Part shown: piece by piece, positions 3,929-33,406 of the stretch
Numbering within the stretch: position 1 is the first letter of the stretch
Layout: every line of letters starts with the position of its first letter
Source: Minisyncoccota bacterium
GTDB taxonomy: Bacteria > Patescibacteriota > Minisyncoccia > JBAYJV01
Length of the DNA stretch: 64,000 nt
Direction of reading: 5' to 3'
Assembly (NCBI GenBank): GCA_041664925.1
Contig: JBAYJV010000001.1
Span: 361,183 to 425,182 of the forward strand
Translations under genes and position numbers: made by a program
The notes under the pieces: model-generated
Databases searched by the model: none
The model's input: the letters and a program-made list of their open reading frames with translations, nothing else
Told to the model about the DNA's origin: nothing

Positions 3929-5122
3929 ATGAAAATAGCAAAAAAAATATTTGGCATATCTTTTGTTAGTTTTCTTTTGTTTTTTGCAGTTAATGTACTT
4001 GCAATAGATCCGCCAACAGGATTAAACATAAATCATAGTGGCACTCCACCGAACGTAGCCGTTATAATTGAATGGGACGACGAATCAGCTGAATATTACA
4101 AGGTTTATGCTAATGGAGTGCAAATAGGAGACGATTTTTATAATCCGACCCCTCATCATGTTTTTGTATATACCGAGTCGTCTTCTGGGGATTATGTTTA
4201 TGGCGTAGAATCTTTTGATCCAGTCACAGGAGATGTTTCGTCGCGATTGGAACAATCATACACTGTTCCTGTTGTCGATCCGCCAACTAACCTATCATTA
4301 AATCAAGACGCAGATAATCGAGTTGATGTCAGCTGGAATGGAACATCTCAACAATATAGGGTATATAGAGATGGTAATTTAGTGAATACCACGACAGCAG
4401 GCAATACAAATTTTCAGGACGTTAATGTTCCAACAGGAAATCATTTATATAAAGTAACATCATATAATGCGACGATCAACGCAGAGTCAACTCCCATTAG
4501 CGCTTCGATTGATGTTACTGGACCAGGTTCTTTTGTGGAAGACTGTGATAATACAATGGAAGATGACGGTGATGGAAAAATTGACTGCGAAGACCCTGAC
4601 TGTTCAGCAGACCCTGCTTGTGTCCCACCTCCTATTGAAATCTGCACCGGTGGCGTAGATGAAGACAACGATGGATTAGTTGATTGTGCTGATGATAATT
4701 GTCTTGGTGATCCTGCGTGTACTGGGGGAGGAACTCATCGGCCATCAGGAGATCTTTTTCCTATTATCCAATGCGGCTATAATTGTCCTGGTGTTTTTCC
4801 CGGAGATCCGGGCGCCGATTGTTGTACGCTTTGCGATGCGTTTGAGACAATATCGCGCATTATTAATATTATTTTAATGTTCGGTTTCATTTTGGGTGGC
4901 ATGTTTTTAGTGGTTGCTGGGATTATTATGTATGCAGGGGGAGCGAGTTCTGGTTTATTAAATAAATCAAAAACTATTATAAAAGGCGTGATTTTTGGGC
5001 TTGTGATTATGCTGGTTTCTTATTTAATCGTCTTTACTATTATTCATTTCCTTTCTGCCGGCAATGCTGATACTTTATTTAGTATAAAAAATGGCGGATT
5101 TGTTATCGAATGCACGCCATAA
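3929..5122 (+). CDS. secreted protein: two Fn3-like repeats + Cys/Asp-rich calcium-binding-like module + C-terminal VirB2/TrbC-like two-helix pilin domain
   Basis: Signal peptide. Two repeats each starting DPPTGLN/DPPTNLS. Block DCDNTMEDDGDGKIDCEDPDC...DEDNDGLVDCADDNC. C-terminal ~100 aa is homologous to the three following small proteins (hydrophobic helix - GG loop - hydrophobic helix). Confidence 0.4.
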   Translation: MKIAKKIFGISFVSFLLFFAVNVLAIDPPTGLNINHSGTPPNVAVIIEWDDESAEYYKVYANGVQIGDDFYNPTPHHVFVYTESSSGDYVYGVESFDPVTGDVSSRLEQSYTVPVVDPPTNLSLNQDADNRVDVSWNGTSQQYRVYRDGNLVNTTTAGNTNFQDVNVPTGNHLYKVTSYNATINAESTPISASIDVTGPGSFVEDCDNTMEDDGDGKIDCEDPDCSADPACVPPPIEICTGGVDEDNDGLVDCADDNCLGDPACTGGGTHRPSGDLFPIIQCGYNCPGVFPGDPGADCCTLCDAFETISRIINIILMFGFILGGMFLVVAGIIMYAGGASSGLLNKSKTIIKGVIFGLVIMLVSYLIVFTIIHFLSAGNADTLFSIKNGGFVIECTP

Positions 5123-15601: not shown

Positions 15602-16384
15602 TTACTTTTTTAAAGACTGATAATTGAGGCGGCGAAACTCTCTAGTAACAACGAATGACAAGACAATTAAGAATCCTGCCACTAGATAAAGAATCCCTCC
15701 TTCTTTCAGATTATTACTCTCTATTATAAGAAAATTAAAGATACCATGCAAGCCGGTCGCTATTAGTGTTCCCAGTACGACAAAACCAACTCTTAGGGGA
15801 AAACGGCGACGATTTTTTTTCCAAAAAACAGCTTTTGCAAGAAAAAATCCTAGCGTTGCTGAAGAAAGAACATGAATTAAGGTTGCGCCTAAAAACCTAA
15901 CAAATAATAAAACTGACAACGATTTTAAGTTGCTATAATTGGCGCTAATTAAGATGTTTTCCACGGCTGCAAACGCCAATGCAACAATAATCATGTATTC
16001 CATTGCATCGACAGGTTCGTCAAATTCAGGGTTTTTAAAAATCGAAAAACGAACTACAAGATATTTCAAAACTTCCTCCCAAAAAGCATTAATAAAAATT
16101 ATTATAATCGGAATTGTCAAAATGTAAGGAAAATGGTCTTTAATAAAAAAACCTCTTTTAGCAAAATCACTTTCGAGTGATGCAAAGAAAAAAATAATAA
16201 AGGCTGCTACGATTGTGGTTATCATTCCCCAAACAAAAACGCGCATTATCAAGTGATTGGGTTCTGGATGAACATCCTTTCTTAAATAAAATAAAAGCCA
16301 AATGAGGCTGGGTAATAGGGCTAGGGGAATAGCGATAAGAAAAAACATAGTTAATTTTTCAAATAAATCAGAAACCCGAAGCAC
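15602..16384 (-). CDS. PrsW-like intramembrane metalloprotease family protein
   Basis: Polytopic membrane protein with EEVLKY (EExxK), FAAVENI (FxxxE), HVLSS and HGIFNF motifs, in the PrsW-family order. Confidence 0.4.
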   Translation of the reverse strand: MLRVSDLFEKLTMFFLIAIPLALLPSLIWLLFYLRKDVHPEPNHLIMRVFVWGMITTIVAAFIIFFFASLESDFAKRGFFIKDHFPYILTIPIIIIFINAFWEEVLKYLVVRFSIFKNPEFDEPVDAMEYMIIVALAFAAVENILISANYSNLKSLSVLLFVRFLGATLIHVLSSATLGFFLAKAVFWKKNRRRFPLRVGFVVLGTLIATGLHGIFNFLIIESNNLKEGGILYLVAGFLIVLSFVVTREFRRLNYQSLKK

Positions 16385-16500
16385 GAAAACCGAAACAAAT
16401 CATAATTTTCAAAATTCAAAATCTCAAACACTTTGTCATTAAATATTCGAATTTAGATATTGTTTCGAATTTCGGATTTAGAACTTCGAATTTAAACGGT
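16365..16500. repeat. intergenic repeat element copy A (homologous to 31141-31282): AAACCCGAAGCA...CCGAAACAA...TTCAAAA...3x TTCGAATTT
   Basis: Shares multiple 8-12 nt blocks in the same order with copy B. TTCGAA palindromic hexamers at 16446, 16464 and 16485 (spacing 18 and 21 bp). Confidence 0.6.
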
Positions 16501-18624
16501 TGGCCATTTCTCAATCATTATAAATTTTTCCTTGTTTTTAATAGGCAGTGCTTGATAAATTTGTTCGGTGATGAATGGGATGAACGGATGAAGGAGCTTG
16601 ATAGAATCGAAAAGAACGTAAAGTAAAATACTCTGAGTTTTAATTTTTATCTCTTCTGAGGGCGGATTAAAGACTTTGTCCTTTGATTTTTCTATATAAG
16701 TGTCGCAGAAGTCATGCCAGAAAAAATTATAAAGAGTTTCGGTAGCCTTATTAAACCTAAACTTTTCTACATATAAACTTACCGACTTAATAGTGTTTTT
16801 AAGCTGGTCGATAATAGCTTTATCGTCTTCATCTAAATCAGTTTGGACTAATTTTTTTTCAAAATCAGCATCAATCTGCGGAGGATTATTTAATAGAATA
16901 AATCTAGTAGCATTCCATATTTTATTGCAAAATTTTTGACCCATTACAACAGAATCTTCATTAAATCTAATAGATTGGTTTGTGCCGGTAAGCCAAAGAA
17001 GTCCAAAACGAGTAGCATCAGCTCCGTATTTTTCAATAAGATCAAGCGGATCAATACCTGTGCCTAGGGATTTAGACATTCTGCGACCATCTTTTGTGAG
17101 CACAACTGGATGGATATAAACATTTTTAAAAGGTTCTTTTCCCATAAATTCTATGCCAGAAAAAATCATTCGCGTTATCCACAAATAAAGAATTTCAGGG
17201 GCACTTGTCACCAAATCGGTTGGATAAAACTCTCCAAGATCGTCTTGTGGAGTTAAGCATTTTTTGTCATTGGCGATACTTTTGCATTTTTGGGGCCATC
17301 CAAGAATTGCAAAGGGCCAAAGGGCCGAAGAAAACCAAGTATCTAAGACATCTTCAGAGTTTTTTATTGGAAGTTCGTGTCCCCACCAAATCTGGCGAGA
17401 AATACACCAATCACGAATATTTTCTAGCCAGTTAAAATAAGGTTTTTCCCATCTTTTTGGGTAAAACCTAATTTTTCCATCCCTAACAGCTTTAATCGCT
17501 AAAGGCGCGAGCTTGTTCATCTTCAAAAACCACTGAGAAGATGTCAGTGGTTCAATGTAGGCGTTACAGCGATAACAATGAGATACGCTGTGGGTGTGTT
17601 TTTCAATTTTTTCTAGAAGATTTTCTTTTTTGAGTTGTTCAAGAACTTTTTCGCGCGCTTCAATAGTTTTTAAATCTTTAAAATCCTTACCAACCTCTTC
17701 TGTCATTCGTCCAAATTCATTGATAATTTTTACAGAAGAAAGACTGTGACGTTCTGCTATTTCAAAGTCTATCAAAGAATGGGCAGGGGTTACCTTAACA
17801 GCGCCGGTGCCAAAATCTTTATCTATAATTTTATCTGCTATTAAAGGAATTTCTCTTCCGATAATAGGAAGAACCAAGGTTTTGCCAATTAACTTTTTAT
17901 AACGCTTGTCGCTTGGATTGACCGCAACGGCAGTGTCGCCAAGCATTGTTTCTGGTCTGGTTGTGGCTACTACCACATAATTATCAGAGTCTTTTAGGGA
18001 ATATTTAATATACCAGAGATTGCCTTCCTCTTCGCTATATTCAACTTCAAGATCAGATAGGGCAGTAGAACAGCGAGGACACCAGTTAACCAATCTTTGT
18101 CCTTGATATATCCAACCTAGTTTTTGATAATGATCGAAAGCGGTTTTTACAGCTTCTTTATAATTTTCATCCAAAGTAAAACGACTTCGTGTCCAGTCTA
18201 CAGAAATTCCTAGTTTTTTAAATTGACCTAAAATAATATTACCATATTGTTCTTTCCATTCCCAAACCTTGTTAACAAATAACGATCTTCCAAGGTCTTT
18301 CCTTTTTATATTTTCCTTGGCAAGCTTTTTTTCCACGACATTTTGGGTTGCAATTCCCGCGTGATCAGTTCCCGGGACCCAAAGTACGCGAAATCCTTCC
18401 ATGCGTTTTTTTCTTACGATAACATCAACAAGAGCATTTTCTAGGGCATGCCCCATATGAAGATTGCCAGTAATATTTGGGGGAGCCATAACTGCCGTAA
18501 AAGCTTTGCCATTATTATCTTTTCTGGTATTTTCTGGGCTAAAAAAACCTGAGATTTCCCAATCATGGTAAATTTTTTCTTCAGTTTCTTTAGGCTGGTA
18601 CTTTTTGTCGAAAGAAGCATCCAT
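16492..18624 (-). CDS. valS: valyl-tRNA synthetase (short form, lacks the C-terminal coiled-coil extension)
   Basis: PPNITGNLHMGHAL (class I HIGH region, ValRS-type), KMSKS loop, editing domain region. Confidence 0.8.
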   Translation of the reverse strand: MDASFDKKYQPKETEEKIYHDWEISGFFSPENTRKDNNGKAFTAVMAPPNITGNLHMGHALENALVDVIVRKKRMEGFRVLWVPGTDHAGIATQNVVEKKLAKENIKRKDLGRSLFVNKVWEWKEQYGNIILGQFKKLGISVDWTRSRFTLDENYKEAVKTAFDHYQKLGWIYQGQRLVNWCPRCSTALSDLEVEYSEEEGNLWYIKYSLKDSDNYVVVATTRPETMLGDTAVAVNPSDKRYKKLIGKTLVLPIIGREIPLIADKIIDKDFGTGAVKVTPAHSLIDFEIAERHSLSSVKIINEFGRMTEEVGKDFKDLKTIEAREKVLEQLKKENLLEKIEKHTHSVSHCYRCNAYIEPLTSSQWFLKMNKLAPLAIKAVRDGKIRFYPKRWEKPYFNWLENIRDWCISRQIWWGHELPIKNSEDVLDTWFSSALWPFAILGWPQKCKSIANDKKCLTPQDDLGEFYPTDLVTSAPEILYLWITRMIFSGIEFMGKEPFKNVYIHPVVLTKDGRRMSKSLGTGIDPLDLIEKYGADATRFGLLWLTGTNQSIRFNEDSVVMGQKFCNKIWNATRFILLNNPPQIDADFEKKLVQTDLDEDDKAIIDQLKNTIKSVSLYVEKFRFNKATETLYNFFWHDFCDTYIEKSKDKVFNPPSEEIKIKTQSILLYVLFDSIKLLHPFIPFITEQIYQALPIKNKEKFIMIEKWPTV

Positions 18625-26880: not shown

Positions 26881-27216
26881 TTACTCGCCTTGTTTTATAA
26901 AATCAATTTGCTTTTGAGACATGCAATAACTAAGACAAGTCTCGATAGAGGGAAAATCTCTATTTTCTTCAACAAATTCTGACTTATATCCCCATGGACG
27001 ATATTCCCAAAGACTACTGCTTTTATTAAAGTAGCAAACACGATAACATTCTTTTAAAAACCCTCTGTGATATGTATATTTTACAATAAGTGCCGAGGTT
27101 GCTATCGCTATGAGAAAGATAAGGATAATTACTAAAACTATTAAAAAAGTCTTCCGTTTATTGTTATTTTTTTTCCTGTCTTTTAAAACAACAGTTTTTC
27201 TGTTATTTTTTTTCAT
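26881..27216 (-). CDS. hypothetical single-pass membrane protein with 4-Cys ectodomain
   Basis: Lys/Asn-rich N-terminus, one TM helix, C-terminal CYRVCY...CLSYC. Confidence 0.25.
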   Translation of the reverse strand: MKKNNRKTVVLKDRKKNNNKRKTFLIVLVIILIFLIAIATSALIVKYTYHRGFLKECYRVCYFNKSSSLWEYRPWGYKSEFVEENRDFPSIETCLSYCMSQKQIDFIKQGE

Positions 27217-27559
27217 GTTTTTTAAAAAACAATTTTCTATACTTATTTCTCAATTTTTGTAATCTTTTTTCAACATAAATTATTTTCCACCAAAAGAATC
27301 CTTGCCATAGCCCAAAAAATATTCCCACTAAGAATAAAATAACCGTTAGGATGCTGTGAAGAGAAAACCATTGCGCCCAAGACATGCCAAGACTATACTT
27401 ATTAAAATTCCCAACAAGAAGACCAATCCACCAAACTTCAAGACCGACATGAATCAGTCCTTGAAGAATAATTCCCAACAAAACAAATAATGTGATATAA
27501 ATAATCTTTTTAAGCATTATATAGTCATTATATCTTTTAAGGGAAATTTTATCAAACAA
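27203..27559 (-). CDS. hypothetical small polytopic membrane protein (3 TM)
   Basis: Hydrophobicity pattern only; overlaps the downstream gene by 14 bp (operon). Confidence 0.25.
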   Translation of the reverse strand: MFDKISLKRYNDYIMLKKIIYITLFVLLGIILQGLIHVGLEVWWIGLLVGNFNKYSLGMSWAQWFSLHSILTVILFLVGIFFGLWQGFFWWKIIYVEKRLQKLRNKYRKLFFKKHEKK

Positions 27560-31028: not shown

Positions 31029-31061
31029 ATATTTTTAATATTAAATGATATTGCGAATTTG

Positions 31062-31135
31062 TGGGCTCGACAGGACTTGAACCTGTGACCTTCTCAATGT
31101 CACTGAGACGCTCTAGCCAACTGAGCTACGAGCCC
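31062..31135 (-). tRNA. tRNA-Val (anticodon GAC)
   Basis: GGGCTCG acceptor, anticodon loop GTGACAT, T-loop TTCAAGT. Confidence 0.75.
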
Positions 31136-31140
31136 ATTTT

Positions 31141-31282
31141 TATTAAACCCGAAGCATTAAACCTGAAATCCGAAACAATATTTAAATTATAATTCTTAAA
31201 TTCAAAACAGTTTTTTTAAAATAAACATTTAGATTTTGAATTTGTCTCGAATTTCGAAATTCGATATTCGAATTTATTAATG
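31141..31282. repeat. intergenic repeat element copy B (homologous to 16365-16500), contains perfect 16-mer palindrome CGAATTTCGAAATTCG
   Basis: Blocks AAACCCGAAGCA, CCGAAACAA, ATTCAAAA and TTCGAATTT in the same order as copy A. Palindrome at 31248-31263. Confidence 0.6.
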
Positions 31283-31286
31283 TATG

Positions 31287-31360
31287 CGTCCCCAGCTGGG
31301 CTTGAACCAGCAACCTACAGCTTAGAAGGCTGTCGCTCTATCCAATTGAGCTATAGGGAC
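31287..31360 (-). tRNA. tRNA-Arg (anticodon TCT)
   Basis: GTCCCTA acceptor, anticodon loop CTTCTAA, T-loop TTCAAGC. Confidence 0.75.
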
Positions 31361-31373
31361 ATTAGAAACATTA

Positions 31374-32009
31374 TTATGCCTTCCTTAAAATAACAAGCTT
31401 GGTTTTTTCTCGATTTAATTTTTCCGGTTCTAATTTCAACTTATCCAATTCTTCTTTTTCTTGGCCTATTTCCTGAATAAAATAATCAGCATTACTAAGA
31501 CCCATCTTGTCATCATGATCAGCGTCTGTTTTATAGAACATAGGAATGACTATAGCGGGCTCTATTTGATGAACGATTTCTACTGCATCGGTTGCCTCAA
31601 GCACAGATTTGCCACCAACAGGTATCATTAAAACATCAACCCCATCTATTTTTTCCAATAACTTTCCTACCGAAGATTTTTGCCTAATCGTGCCCATATG
31701 GACCAATGTTGAGCCATTCCAATGAATGACAAAAATATTATTCATTGTTTTATCCGGACCAGCAGAAGAATGCACCTGAATACTGATATCTTGAACTTCA
31801 TATTCTCCTGGGTAGGTAAATGTATATTTTGTTTTATTAATAGTATTCTTATCGTACTTGAGAAAATCAGGATTACTCAAAAGACAAACATCTGGAGTGT
31901 CTTCAGATGGTTTTATGTCGTAAGTCTTATTGTCTACTGGATCAATCCAAAGGCTAATACTTCCATCATTGATTTTGAAAAATGATAAACCTTGCCAATC
32001 AATAGTCAT
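31374..32009 (-). CDS. MBL-fold metal-dependent hydrolase-like protein (Lactamase_B_3-like)
   Basis: C-terminal VDVLMIPVGG...LEATDAVEIV..IEPAIVIPMFY resembles the UPF0173-type beta-lactamase-fold hydrolase C-terminus. His motifs are degenerate. Confidence 0.4.
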   Translation of the reverse strand: MTIDWQGLSFFKINDGSISLWIDPVDNKTYDIKPSEDTPDVCLLSNPDFLKYDKNTINKTKYTFTYPGEYEVQDISIQVHSSAGPDKTMNNIFVIHWNGSTLVHMGTIRQKSSVGKLLEKIDGVDVLMIPVGGKSVLEATDAVEIVHQIEPAIVIPMFYKTDADHDDKMGLSNADYFIQEIGQEKEELDKLKLEPEKLNREKTKLVILRKA

Positions 32010-32269
32010 AAAATAGTTATTTAAAAATTAATCTTTGTATTCTTATTATACCTGATTGTAAGTTTTTTTTCTAAAAAAGCAAGTTTATTCTTAAAAAAAC
32101 GTGCTTTATTTTCGAAAAACACAATAAATCACTTGAAAAAAATAAAATACCGGCTATAATAGAAAATCTACAGCATCCAGCTGATCATTTTTTGTGCTGG
32201 TACTGTTTTCATTCCTTGAATGAATATTTGTTTATTCAATGGCATGAATTAATTTGAAAGGAGCTTTTA

Positions 32270-33406
32270 ATGACTAATGTAAAAATAAGTAAAAAGGACA
32301 AAGATAAAAAAAATAAATTCGATATAGATTTTCTAAAAAAAGGGGAAATTGTCGAAGCTAAAGTTATAAGTAAGGGGCGCAAGATTATCTATTTTGATTT
32401 GGGCGCCAGAGGAATGGGAATATGCTATAAAAGTGAATTTTTTGATTTACCCCAAGATATGAGGGAAATTGAAGAGGGAAAAGCGATTGCTGCTAAAGTC
32501 TTACAGCTTGAAAACGAAGAAGGGTATGTTGAGTTATCTCTTAAGAGAGCAGGAGAAGAGAAGAGCTGGGATTACATTAAAGACAAGATGGAAAAAGGAG
32601 AGGATATTACAGTTAAAATCGTCGGAGCTAATAGGGGTGGTCTTTTAGCCAAGGTTAGAGACATTGACGCTTTCTTGCCAGCCTCTCAATTGTCTAAAGA
32701 CAATTATCCAGATTTTGGCGGAGACAGCGAAAGAATTCTCAAAGAACTTAAAAATCTGGTTGGAAAAGATCTGCAAGTACGCATCGTTGACATTGAGAAA
32801 AATGACAAAAAACTAATTTTATCTGAAAAAGCAGACGAAACAGAGAAAATTAAAGAGAGAATCAAGAATCATCAAATTGGTGACATTGTTGAGGGAAAAG
32901 TTTGTGGAATTGTTGATTACGGAGCGTTTATTAAATTTGACGATAACCTAGAAGGACTAGTGCACATATCAGAAATAGATTGGCAACTCATTGAGGATCC
33001 TAGAGATGTTTTGAAGGTTGGTCAAGACGTTAAAGCAAAAATTATCGGGTTAAGAGATAATCAGGTATCTCTTTCCCTTAAGGCGCTAAAGCAAGATCCG
33101 TGGCTTGAAATTAAGGATAAATATCAGAGGGGCGATGTGGTTAAGGCAGAAGTTGTAAAATTAAATCCTTATGGTGCTTTTGTAAAACTTGACGAGAAAA
33201 TTCAAGGATTAGTACCAATCTCAAAACTTCCAACGAAAGATGGACAAATATCAATTGAAATTGGGAAACAGTACAAATTCAAAATATTCTCAGTTAATAT
33301 TTTGCGCCACCGCATGGCATTAATACCAGCCGAAGAGGCAGAAAAGACTGAGAAAAAAACAGAAAAGACAGAAAAAGTAAATGAGATAGAAAAAGAAAAA
33401 AAGTAA
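32270..33406 (+). CDS. rpsA: 30S ribosomal protein S1 (short, 4 S1 domains)
   Basis: Four tandem S1/OB repeats (GEIVEAKV..., DITVKIVGANRGG..., GDIVEGKVCGIVDYGAFI..., GDVVKAEVVKLNPYGAFV...). Confidence 0.8.
   Translation: MTNVKISKKDKDKKNKFDIDFLKKGEIVEAKVISKGRKIIYFDLGARGMGICYKSEFFDLPQDMREIEEGKAIAAKVLQLENEEGYVELSLKRAGEEKSWDYIKDKMEKGEDITVKIVGANRGGLLAKVRDIDAFLPASQLSKDNYPDFGGDSERILKELKNLVGKDLQVRIVDIEKNDKKLILSEKADETEKIKERIKNHQIGDIVEGKVCGIVDYGAFIKFDDNLEGLVHISEIDWQLIEDPRDVLKVGQDVKAKIIGLRDNQVSLSLKALKQDPWLEIKDKYQRGDVVKAEVVKLNPYGAFVKLDEKIQGLVPISKLPTKDGQISIEIGKQYKFKIFSVNILRHRMALIPAEEAEKTEKKTEKTEKVNEIEKEKK

Follow-up and report, generated by a model that had tools for sequence, protein, structure and literature searches.

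Hairpin elements in two spacers of a patescibacterial genome as probable gene-less derivatives of PF05635 (S23p-type) cassettes

Intervening sequences (IVSs) in bacterial rRNA genes and the S23p proteins that they encode have been known for about 30 years, and their origin, their mobility, and the function of the protein are still a puzzle. The IVS in the 23S rRNA of Coxiella burnetii is a 428-nt selfish element that consists of an inverted-repeat stem with an S23p open reading frame (ORF) in the loop; the stem contains tandem heptameric repeats, the number of which differs by strain, and is cleaved by RNase III at the first repeat (Warrier et al. 2016, PMC4990558). Mobility of such IVSs had been proposed by Ralph and McClelland (PMC4990558). 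In bacteria of the candidate phyla radiation, ORFs of the respective family, PF05635, and short nonintron inserts have been reported in rRNA genes (PMC11270868). Here, we describe two homologous hairpin elements of about 125 to 135 bp each, copies A and B, within a 64,000-nt stretch of the genome of a Minisyncoccota bacterium (Patescibacteriota; assembly GCA_041664925.1, contig JBAYJV010000001.1, positions 361,183 to 425,182), hereafter the window. Both copies are likely to be internally deleted, gene-less hairpin cassettes of the PF05635/TIGR02436 type; their likely role is that of selfish DNA that would be transcribed together with the host genes and excised as double-stranded RNA.

Both copies are on the minus strand and fill intergenic gaps. 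Copy A occupies the 143-bp gap between the stop codon of valS (16492-16494) and the start codon of a gene for a PrsW-family protein (16346-16348), which is itself followed by an HSP20 gene according to the gene calls, and copy B occupies the 150-bp gap between the tRNA-Arg(tct) and tRNA-Val(gac) genes. No rRNA genes were found in the window with Rfam; the copies sit in the valS-prsW and tRNA-tRNA spacers instead. A preliminary description of this DNA, made from the letters alone, had reported a conserved element present twice on the minus strand, 3' of the valS stop or tRNA-Arg and 5' of the PrsW-like gene or tRNA-Val, and the gene calls and ARAGORN predictions agree with this context. The element is real: copies A and B align with 76% column identity, and the shared string AAACCCGAAGCA occurs at exactly two sites in the window, 16372 and 31145. 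Two further details of that description were borne out, namely, the three TTCGAA-type units of copy A at spacings of 18 and 21 bp (exact TTCGAATTT is present in the window only at 16446, 16464, 16485, and 31267) and the perfect 16-bp palindrome of copy B, CGAATTTCGAAATTCG, at 31248-31263. A profile built from the two copies detected no third copy in the window (next match, E = 0.49). The hexamer TTCGAA is depleted in the window (15 sites versus 33.7 +/- 5.4 expected, with at least 15 in each of 100 shuffles), yet 5 of the 15 sites fall inside the two copies; the repeat is therefore not the AT-rich, low-complexity sequence with chance-level identity that the preliminary description had allowed for. 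The window-wide depletion of TTCGAA may reflect restriction-site avoidance.

The features that the preliminary description missed are the 7-bp period and the hairpin-forming inverted repeat in each copy. The two-copy profile also matches the opposite strand of each copy (E about 1e-10), and therefore, each copy is one long imperfect inverted repeat. Its arms consist of tandem 7-bp units, nnnCGAA on one side and TTCGnnn on the other; the TTCGAA-rich half of each copy, read as its reverse complement, corresponds to the AAACCCGAAGCA...CCGAAACAA half. A period of 7 is reported for both elements by Tandem Repeats Finder (TRF) (4.4 units of TTTCGAA at 16463-16493 and 3.7 units of TCGAAAT at 31247-31272). 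The TTCGAA palindromes are a by-product of abutting CGAA and TTCG heptads, and the 21-bp spacing in copy A is 3 x 7 bp. Folded as RNA, copy A reaches -31.4 kcal/mol on the minus strand versus -18.2 kcal/mol on the plus strand, with a main stem of 28 pairs, 4 of them G-U; copy B reaches -30.7 kcal/mol on the minus strand (z = -4.0; none of 200 shuffles was as good) versus -19.7 kcal/mol on the plus strand, with a main stem of about 50 pairs. In both copies, the strand of the host genes is thus favored by 11 to 13 kcal/mol. The plus-strand folds are weaker because several of the minus-strand pairs are G-U.

The connection to a protein-coding element comes from longer relatives of these hairpins. 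In three patescibacterial loci (L077, L105, and L083), the arms are 300 to 440 bp apart and enclose an ORF of ~118 amino acids that matches both PF05635, "23S rRNA-intervening sequence protein" (E = 2.9e-16), and TIGR02436, "four helix bundle protein" (E = 1.7e-23); the heptad core in L083 is CAAA/TTTG. The nearest solved structure to the cassette protein is 2rld, deposited with five identical chains (E = 5e-14). A protein-only search of metagenome contigs yielded at least 588 relatives, of which the best 80, all with the gene by construction, were kept and 72 had enough flanking sequence for analysis. The flanks pair at -30 kcal/mol or better in 68 of these 72 loci; at least three in-phase CGAA and TTCG heptads are found on both sides in 30, and the remaining loci have CTAA/TTAG, CAAA/TTTG, or CCAA/TTGG units. 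Among the 40 cassettes with at least three in-phase units on both arms, the arm cores are complementary (CGAA/TTCG, CAAA/TTTG, or CTAA/TTAG) in 38. The arm cores change in complementary pairs; it is the pairing between the arms that is kept, not a fixed recognition word. Several short metagenome contigs contain a PF05635 cassette together with 2 or 3 gene-less copies within 2 to 3 kb (L190 271-1593, L211, L185, and L040), showing local clustering of the coding and miniature forms.

The start codon of the cassette ORF lies inside a conserved block, CAAATTCAAATGACC, that gene-less copies keep, and the sequence directly past the cassette stop codon is the complement of the same block. Because the cassette ATG is located within this block, the corresponding AATGACCAAAAC block of the gene-less copies is a relic of the ORF start; the window copies contain no ORF in the loop, only the AATGAC... 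relic. Gene-less copies of this kind are PF05635 cassettes that have undergone an internal deletion. An independent test of this relationship on the window employed hidden Markov models (HMMs) trained solely on the flanks of the protein-retrieved PF05635 loci. The 5'-flank HMM matched copy A (16507-16453, E = 5.6e-7) and copy B (31294-31235, E = 7.3e-7), and the 3'-flank HMM matched both on the minus strand (copy A, 16433-16360, E = 1.3e-10; copy B, 31214-31130, E = 3.8e-8). Matches below E = 0.001 were confined to the two copies, and the next match (E about 0.01 to 0.04) was also inside copy B. That the window elements are members of the PF05635-cassette family is, in our assessment, very probable. 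Their parts and the adjacent genes are given in Table 1.

Table 1. Positions in the window of the two hairpin elements, their parts, and the adjacent genes
Feature	Positions	Strand	Remarks
Copy A, whole hairpin element	16372..16493	minus	Outermost pair 16493:16372; includes the two final bases of the valS stop codon, TAA
Copy A, 5' arm	16456..16493	minus	ATTCGAA GTTCTAA ATCCGAA ATTCGAA ACAA...; heptad register, TRF period 7
Copy A, ORF-start relic AATGACAAAG	16431..16440	minus	ATG at 16439-16437; family consensus at this site, AAATGACCAAAAC
Copy A, 3' arm	16372..16401	minus	TTGTTTC GGTTTTC GTGCTTC GGGTTT; pairs with the 5' arm
Copy B, whole hairpin element	31144..31276	minus	Starts 9 nt past tRNA-Arg(tct), stops 8 nt short of tRNA-Val(gac)
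Copy B, 5' arm	31232..31276	minus	TAAATTCGA ATATCGA ATTTCGA AATTCGA GACAAATTCAAAA; holds the 16-bp palindrome 31248-31263
Copy B, TAAATGTTTATT, degenerate relic of the ORF-start region	31220..31231	minus	ATG at 31228-31226; corresponds to the consensus block AAATGACC
Copy B, 3' arm	31144..31178	minus	TTGTTTC GGATTTC AGGTTTA ATGCTTC GGGTTTA; one heptad more than copy A
valS	16492..18624	minus	Host gene, stop abuts copy A; ORF list, Pfam tRNA-synt_1 and Anticodon_1 on an identical product
PrsW-family protease gene	15602..16348	minus	3' of copy A, start 23 nt past the hairpin; PF13367, E = 3.3e-25
tRNA-Arg(tct)	31286..31360	minus	5' of copy B; ARAGORN; Rfam tRNA, 69.5 bits
tRNA-Val(gac)	31061..31135	minus	3' of copy B; ARAGORN; Rfam tRNA, 68.6 bits

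To delineate the family across genomes, the GTDB representatives (one genome per species) were scanned with a pattern of the 3' arm, GTTTCGGNTTTCN{2,12}GCTTCGGGTT. At least 118 loci were found versus roughly 3 expected by chance, the expectation being hand arithmetic from the size of the pattern and that of the collection. The loci come from metagenome-assembled genomes labeled as at least ten phyla, among them Planctomycetota, Verrucomicrobiota, Acidobacteriota, Desulfobacterota/"Deltaproteobacteria," Omnitrophota, and Nitrospirota, as well as Patescibacteria, including Saccharibacteria, Staskawiczbacteria, Curtissbacteria, and Magasanikbacteria. Most loci share one layout: 5' nnnCGAA heptads, GAAACAAATTCAAATGACCAAAAC, a loop that differs in sequence by genome and is variable in length, GTTTTGGTCATTTGAATTT, and 3' TTCGnnn heptads. 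The members fall into gap classes differing by 7 nt, and the number of heptads varies by whole units. A family HMM of 171 positions, trained on 46 members with the window excluded, matches 102 of the 118 loci listed, 69 of them over at least 100 positions. This model recovers copy A (16363-16498, E = 3.6e-23) and copy B (31144-31276, E = 2.4e-15) and has no other match in the window. In the fetched loci, it identifies 234 places in 162 loci, many of which have two or more places; several 8-kb loci carry 2 or 3 copies. The 16 listed loci without an HMM match are (GGGTTTC)n microsatellites, coding sequences, or chance matches. Pure (GGGTTTC)n microsatellites were caught by the search pattern in six cases (L011, L020, L046, L081, L093, and L116), one of which (L046) is a run at a contig end, beside TTTGGGG-like units; these loci are probably unrelated to the hairpin family, and 4 of the 6 (L011, L020, and L081 among them) have no HMM match.

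The genomic setting of the family members is diverse. The neighboring genes are unrelated across phyla, the only recurrent ones among 2429 ORFs near copies being histidine kinases, ABC transporters, and Ser/Thr kinases. In viral contigs, only 2 pattern matches were found among 2.9 million, which argues that the element is not phage borne. At gathering thresholds, Rfam detected only tRNAs in the window and in 18 family loci; for one locus searched at E values up to 10, the best non-tRNA match had E = 0.25 and 16 bits, against a gathering score of 70. In some family members, short GC-rich hairpins (CCCTGACTGCCGTAAGGCAGGG, CCCGCC..GGCGGG) are nested in the 5' arm (L130 about 4897-4918, L037, L094, L098, and L104); these may represent a second, tiny palindromic insert within the element.

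The protein-retrieved cassettes are embedded in operons. The upstream neighbor is co-oriented with the PF05635 ORF in 43 loci versus 8, and the downstream neighbor in 31 versus 8. In 26 of 43 loci, 38 to 59 nt separate the cassette ATG from the stop codon upstream, which equals the length of the 5' arm; copy A is alike in that its pairing begins with the second base of the valS TAA. The same placement can be seen in finished plasmids of cultured bacteria, whose annotation says no more of the cassette gene than "four helix bundle protein." In a Chondrinema plasmid, the gene sits in an RND efflux operon, with the adaptor gene on one side and the permease gene on the other; the genes on either side of it are csx2 and cas1 in a Pseudanabaena plasmid and a helicase-related and an N-6 methylase gene in a Chlorohelix plasmid. 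Inverted, lineage-specific heptad arrays surround the gene in at least 3 of 4 plasmids (AGTCGGA in Nostoc punctiforme, nnACAGT in Chondrinema, and ATGAAnn in Chlorohelix). In the Pseudanabaena galeata plasmid pPg_04 (L219), ~6 tandem copies of a ~34-nt unit, CTTCAATCTTCATTTTTCCGCCTTTATTCTTCCCT, are located between csx2 and the four-helix-bundle gene, near cas1; this array is neither of the heptad pattern nor an annotated CRISPR array.

The orientation within operons is accompanied by a strand bias in folding. Among 67 nontied loci, the cassette flanks pair better as sense RNA in 48 and as antisense RNA in 19 (Wilcoxon P = 1.3e-4), with mean pairing energies of -53.4 versus -48.5 kcal/mol, the loci being not fully independent. 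A sense-strand excess of this kind is what G-U tolerance on one strand produces, and it agrees with the behavior of both window copies. The arm asymmetry of the pattern-selected copies is an artifact of the design of the search pattern and was not used.

The syntenic loci of relatives, retrieved via homologs of the PrsW-family and MBL-fold proteins, show when the element appeared (identities are protein identities to the window). The valS-prsW spacer is 143 bp long in the window and 145 bp in L122/L123 (91%), where it holds the same element, 95% identical; it is 22 bp in L124/L125 (75%), 96 bp in L126/L127 (67%), where it contains a different palindrome of AAGGA-type units, and 3 bp in L128/L129 (60%). 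Likewise, the Arg-Val spacer, 150 bp with the element in the window, measures 169 bp in L130/L131 (86%), with the same element plus a nested GC hairpin, and shrinks to 42 bp in L132/L133 (61%) and 46 bp in L135 (51%). Relatives at 86 to 91% thus share both insertions, whereas at 51 to 75% the spacers are short, empty, or different, and therefore, both copies were gained in the common ancestor with the closest relative. Two additional observations concern these spacers. The 96-bp palindrome of AAGGA/TCCTT-type units in the relatives with 67% PrsW identity (L126 8517-8612 and L127 2311-2406) suggests that a site of the valS-prsW type repeatedly receives repeat-built hairpins. In L130, 162 bp (4634-4795) separate the MBL-fold gene from tRNA-Arg(tct), versus 13 bp in the window, and this spacer contains a duplicated tRNA 5' fragment (TGTCCCCATAGCTC) and GC-rich sequence, as if an insertion had occurred into or next to the tRNA gene.

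These findings can be combined into a scenario for the window elements. The full cassette comprises two inverted arrays of tandem heptamers and, between them, the PF05635/TIGR02436 gene for the S23p four-helix-bundle protein; it inserts inside transcription units and typically begins where an upstream gene in the same orientation has its stop codon. In this Candidatus Paceibacterota lineage, two copies entered after the split from the relatives at about 60 to 75% protein identity, one landing at the valS stop codon and the other in the tRNA-Arg/tRNA-Val spacer, with both inherited by the window genome and the 86 to 91% relatives. The elements would be cotranscribed with valS/prsW and with the tRNA-Arg/tRNA-Val pair, so that upon transcription of the host operon a stem of ~30 to 50 bp would form and would be cut by RNase III, by analogy with the studied 23S rRNA IVSs. 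Such a cut would part the tRNA-Arg from the tRNA-Val precursor and the valS mRNA from the prsW-hsp20-vanW mRNA; as a result, the insertion would do the host almost no harm, or be close to neutral, and the element could persist as selfish DNA. For RNase III processing of the window elements in vivo, we consider the chances to be roughly even, with a slight lean in favor.

Several observations weigh against this scenario or parts of it. No PF05635 gene was found in the window with tblastn or in about 100 kb of close relatives, and no RNase III signature motif was found in the window, a result that is uninformative for the whole genome. Cleavage of the window elements by RNase III is extrapolated from the rRNA IVSs, the only elements for which excision by this enzyme has been demonstrated. 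The sense-strand bias in G-U (or G-T) pairs fits a single-stranded DNA hairpin on the lagging-strand template equally well because host genes tend to be co-oriented with replication. Furthermore, among the 19 gene-less copies outside the pattern selection, the more stable strand coincides with the gene strand in 13 versus 6, which is not significant, and the interior of the 40 pattern-selected gene-less copies displays no strand bias (19 versus 19). Across 52 members, no target-site duplication was detected (best flank repeat, 3.31 nt versus a null of 3.13 +/- 0.12), and true transposition is for this reason no more than a possibility. Finally, the distribution among relatives would in principle also fit a different route of gain, or losses from the relatives.

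Among the alternatives, the one that survives best, although it is still improbable, is a classical MITE (a miniature transposable element with inverted repeats), that is, a nonautonomous insertion sequence derivative that relies for its movement in trans on a conventional transposase, DDE or other, with the repeated arms as its binding sites. The small size, the terminal inverted repeats, the lack of an ORF, the presence or absence between relatives, and the multiplicity of copies, with two in 64 kb and up to three in single 8-kb loci, would all be expected of a MITE. The junctions are not: the flank repeats do not exceed the null value, and the ends are not fixed, given that the heptad number varies by whole units. 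Moreover, no transposase recurs among the 2429 ORFs near copies, and the longer relatives encode a four-helix-bundle protein, not a transposase.

The position of many family members immediately past stop codons brings up a second alternative, rated a little lower still, namely, that the element is a host-recruited RNA structure, a bidirectional terminator or a 3'-end stabilizer in the manner of repetitive extragenic palindromic (REP) elements, kept for its benefit to valS and the tRNA operon. The elements begin 0 to 50 nt past stop codons, the gene pairs around them are more often convergent than divergent (12 versus 4), and the long stem is flanked by an A-tract and a T-tract. However, a terminator scan found no terminator-like site in either region, only three T's follow the stem, and copy B stops 8 nt before the next tRNA gene, which would need its own promoter if transcription ended there. 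Close relatives, in addition, do without the element.

A third alternative is regulatory DNA, a promoter region with an operator array for a dimeric or ribbon-helix-helix type protein that would control prsW-hsp20 and tRNA-Val. An array of sites for a DNA-binding dimeric regulator was the reading favored by the preliminary description, on the grounds of palindromic hexamers spaced by two helical turns. Each copy has a gene on its 3' side, prsW is followed by an HSP20 gene, and omega-type repressors likewise use contiguous 7-bp units; furthermore, copy A contains TTGAGA-17-TATGAT on the minus strand, a 10/12 match that may conceivably act as a promoter. Promoter-like sites are no more numerous than in shuffled sequence, however (2 versus 1.4 +/- 1.1), and the minus strand of copy B lacks them. 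The true phasing is 7 bp rather than 21 bp, the heptad cores covary on both arms (38/40), and the pairing strength differs between the strands. In addition, the element is missing from the same spacers of relatives with the same gene order, and family members adjoin unrelated genes in many phyla, with no recurrent neighbor. Operator function is thus very unlikely. Of the three candidates that had been named at the outset, the miniature repeat element was essentially right, whereas the favored operator array is not supported. A stand-alone, trans-acting small noncoding RNA gene is the least credible possibility of all: the hairpin is stable and strand biased and both copies are conserved in the 86 to 91% relatives, but the element belongs to no Rfam family at gathering or E-value thresholds, has genome-specific loops of variable length and no promoter and terminator pair of its own, and shares homology with the flanks of a cassette that encodes a protein.

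Other candidates were dismissed more readily. Copy B lies 750 bp from a switch in strand and GC skew, and a role in replication origin function was rejected; there is no DnaA-box cluster, and the element is multicopy. The switch itself (32009-32270), where gene orientation turns from minus to plus and plus-strand GC skew from negative to positive, looks origin-like, but dnaA is not among its flanking genes, the products of which are an MBL-fold hydrolase and a protein with an S1 domain, and it has no cluster of DnaA boxes. A eukaryote-type heat-shock element, a CtsR box, parS, integron attC, and CsrA or Rho arrays were considered and dropped, their spacing or defining boxes being a misfit. Elsewhere in the window, a 39-bp unit is tandemly duplicated at 27162-27236 (1.9 copies, 89% matches, TRF score of 120), where two small ORFs of the minus strand adjoin.

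The S23p-type architecture, with inverted arms of heptamer repeats around a PF05635 gene, is common outside rRNA genes, in many phyla and in sense orientation right after the stop codons of ordinary operons, and gene-less hairpin relics are left in tRNA spacers and between protein genes, not only within rRNA genes. In the searchable library, no paper was found on such cassettes or miniatures outside rRNA genes, an absence of evidence only; searches with sequence strings gave only unrelated primer matches, and keyword searches gave nothing specific beyond Aklujkar 2009 and Warrier 2016. The loci gathered here yield a large comparative set of arms, core variants, and insertion junctions, and they lead to the predictions that RNase III cleaves in the stem and that the protein binds its own heptads. 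In practice, metagenome assemblies break at such hairpins, operons would be split by them at the level of RNA, and they currently go without annotation. A bolder proposal, which we rate as rather unlikely, is that PF05635 cassettes are a class of mobile hairpin elements in their own right, spread across phyla and lacking a conventional transposase. A pentameric, Avd-like four-helix-bundle protein would recognize its own heptad arms as RNA or single-stranded DNA, promote their spread, insert the arms at operon stop codons and rRNA helices, and mobilize the gene-less miniatures in trans. Were this the case, the classical 23S rRNA IVSs would be only the rRNA-resident subset of a mobile hairpin class.

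Several described systems resemble these elements in part. The class 1 to 3 "global regulator binding sites" of Geobacter metallireducens are paired tandem repeats of 7 to 9 nt on opposite strands at a variable distance (Aklujkar et al. 2009, PMC2700814). These sites are multicopy, intergenic or within operons, and without an assigned function, and class 3 consists of five heptamers, MTYCTGA (PMC2700814). They differ from the window family in the repeat unit, have been read as IHF/HU binding sites, and have no reported link to PF05635 (PMC2700814). Avd, the accessory protein of diversity-generating retroelements, is homologous to PF05635 (PMC10053308). It shares the four-helix-bundle family with the cassette protein, whereas the cassettes examined have no reverse transcriptase, template, or variable repeat nearby. 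The omega repressor of pSM19035 binds contiguous 7-bp operator units, WATCACW, in direct and inverted orientation at its own plasmid promoters and acts on double-stranded DNA. Unlike omega arrays, the arms of the window family covary to keep pairing, and the element is interspersed. MITEs and the REPIN/REP type of repeats (Correia, ERIC, RUP, and REPIN-RAYT) share with the window copies the character of short, noncoding, interspersed hairpins that are intergenic, often located past stop codons, and variably present. In contrast to them, the window family has neither a target-site duplication nor a GTAG/CGTC head in its consensus, and no transposase, RAYT, or Y1-transposase-like recurrent neighbor was found near copies; its coding relative is a four-helix-bundle protein, and its arms are modular heptad arrays instead of a fixed terminal repeat.

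The closest correspondence is to the S23p IVSs of Coxiella burnetii, Leptospira, Xanthomonas, and Brucella. Like the window copies, these form a long stem from terminal inverted repeats, with tandem heptamers of variable number in the stem (copies A and B differ by one heptad), and, in common with the cassettes, their loop carries a PF05635 ORF, the ribosome-binding site of which is poor and the start of which is near or inside the stem. They are likewise in sense orientation in the host transcript, sporadic among relatives, and regarded as selfish or mobile. The differences are in the location, within rRNA genes as opposed to a tRNA-tRNA spacer and a spacer between protein genes, in the ORF, which the window copies have lost, and in the heptad unit, GACAGAT in the rRNA IVS versus nnnCGAA in the window copies. 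The window elements fail two defining features of the S23p-type IVS, the rRNA location and the ORF, but descend from it and would work like it.

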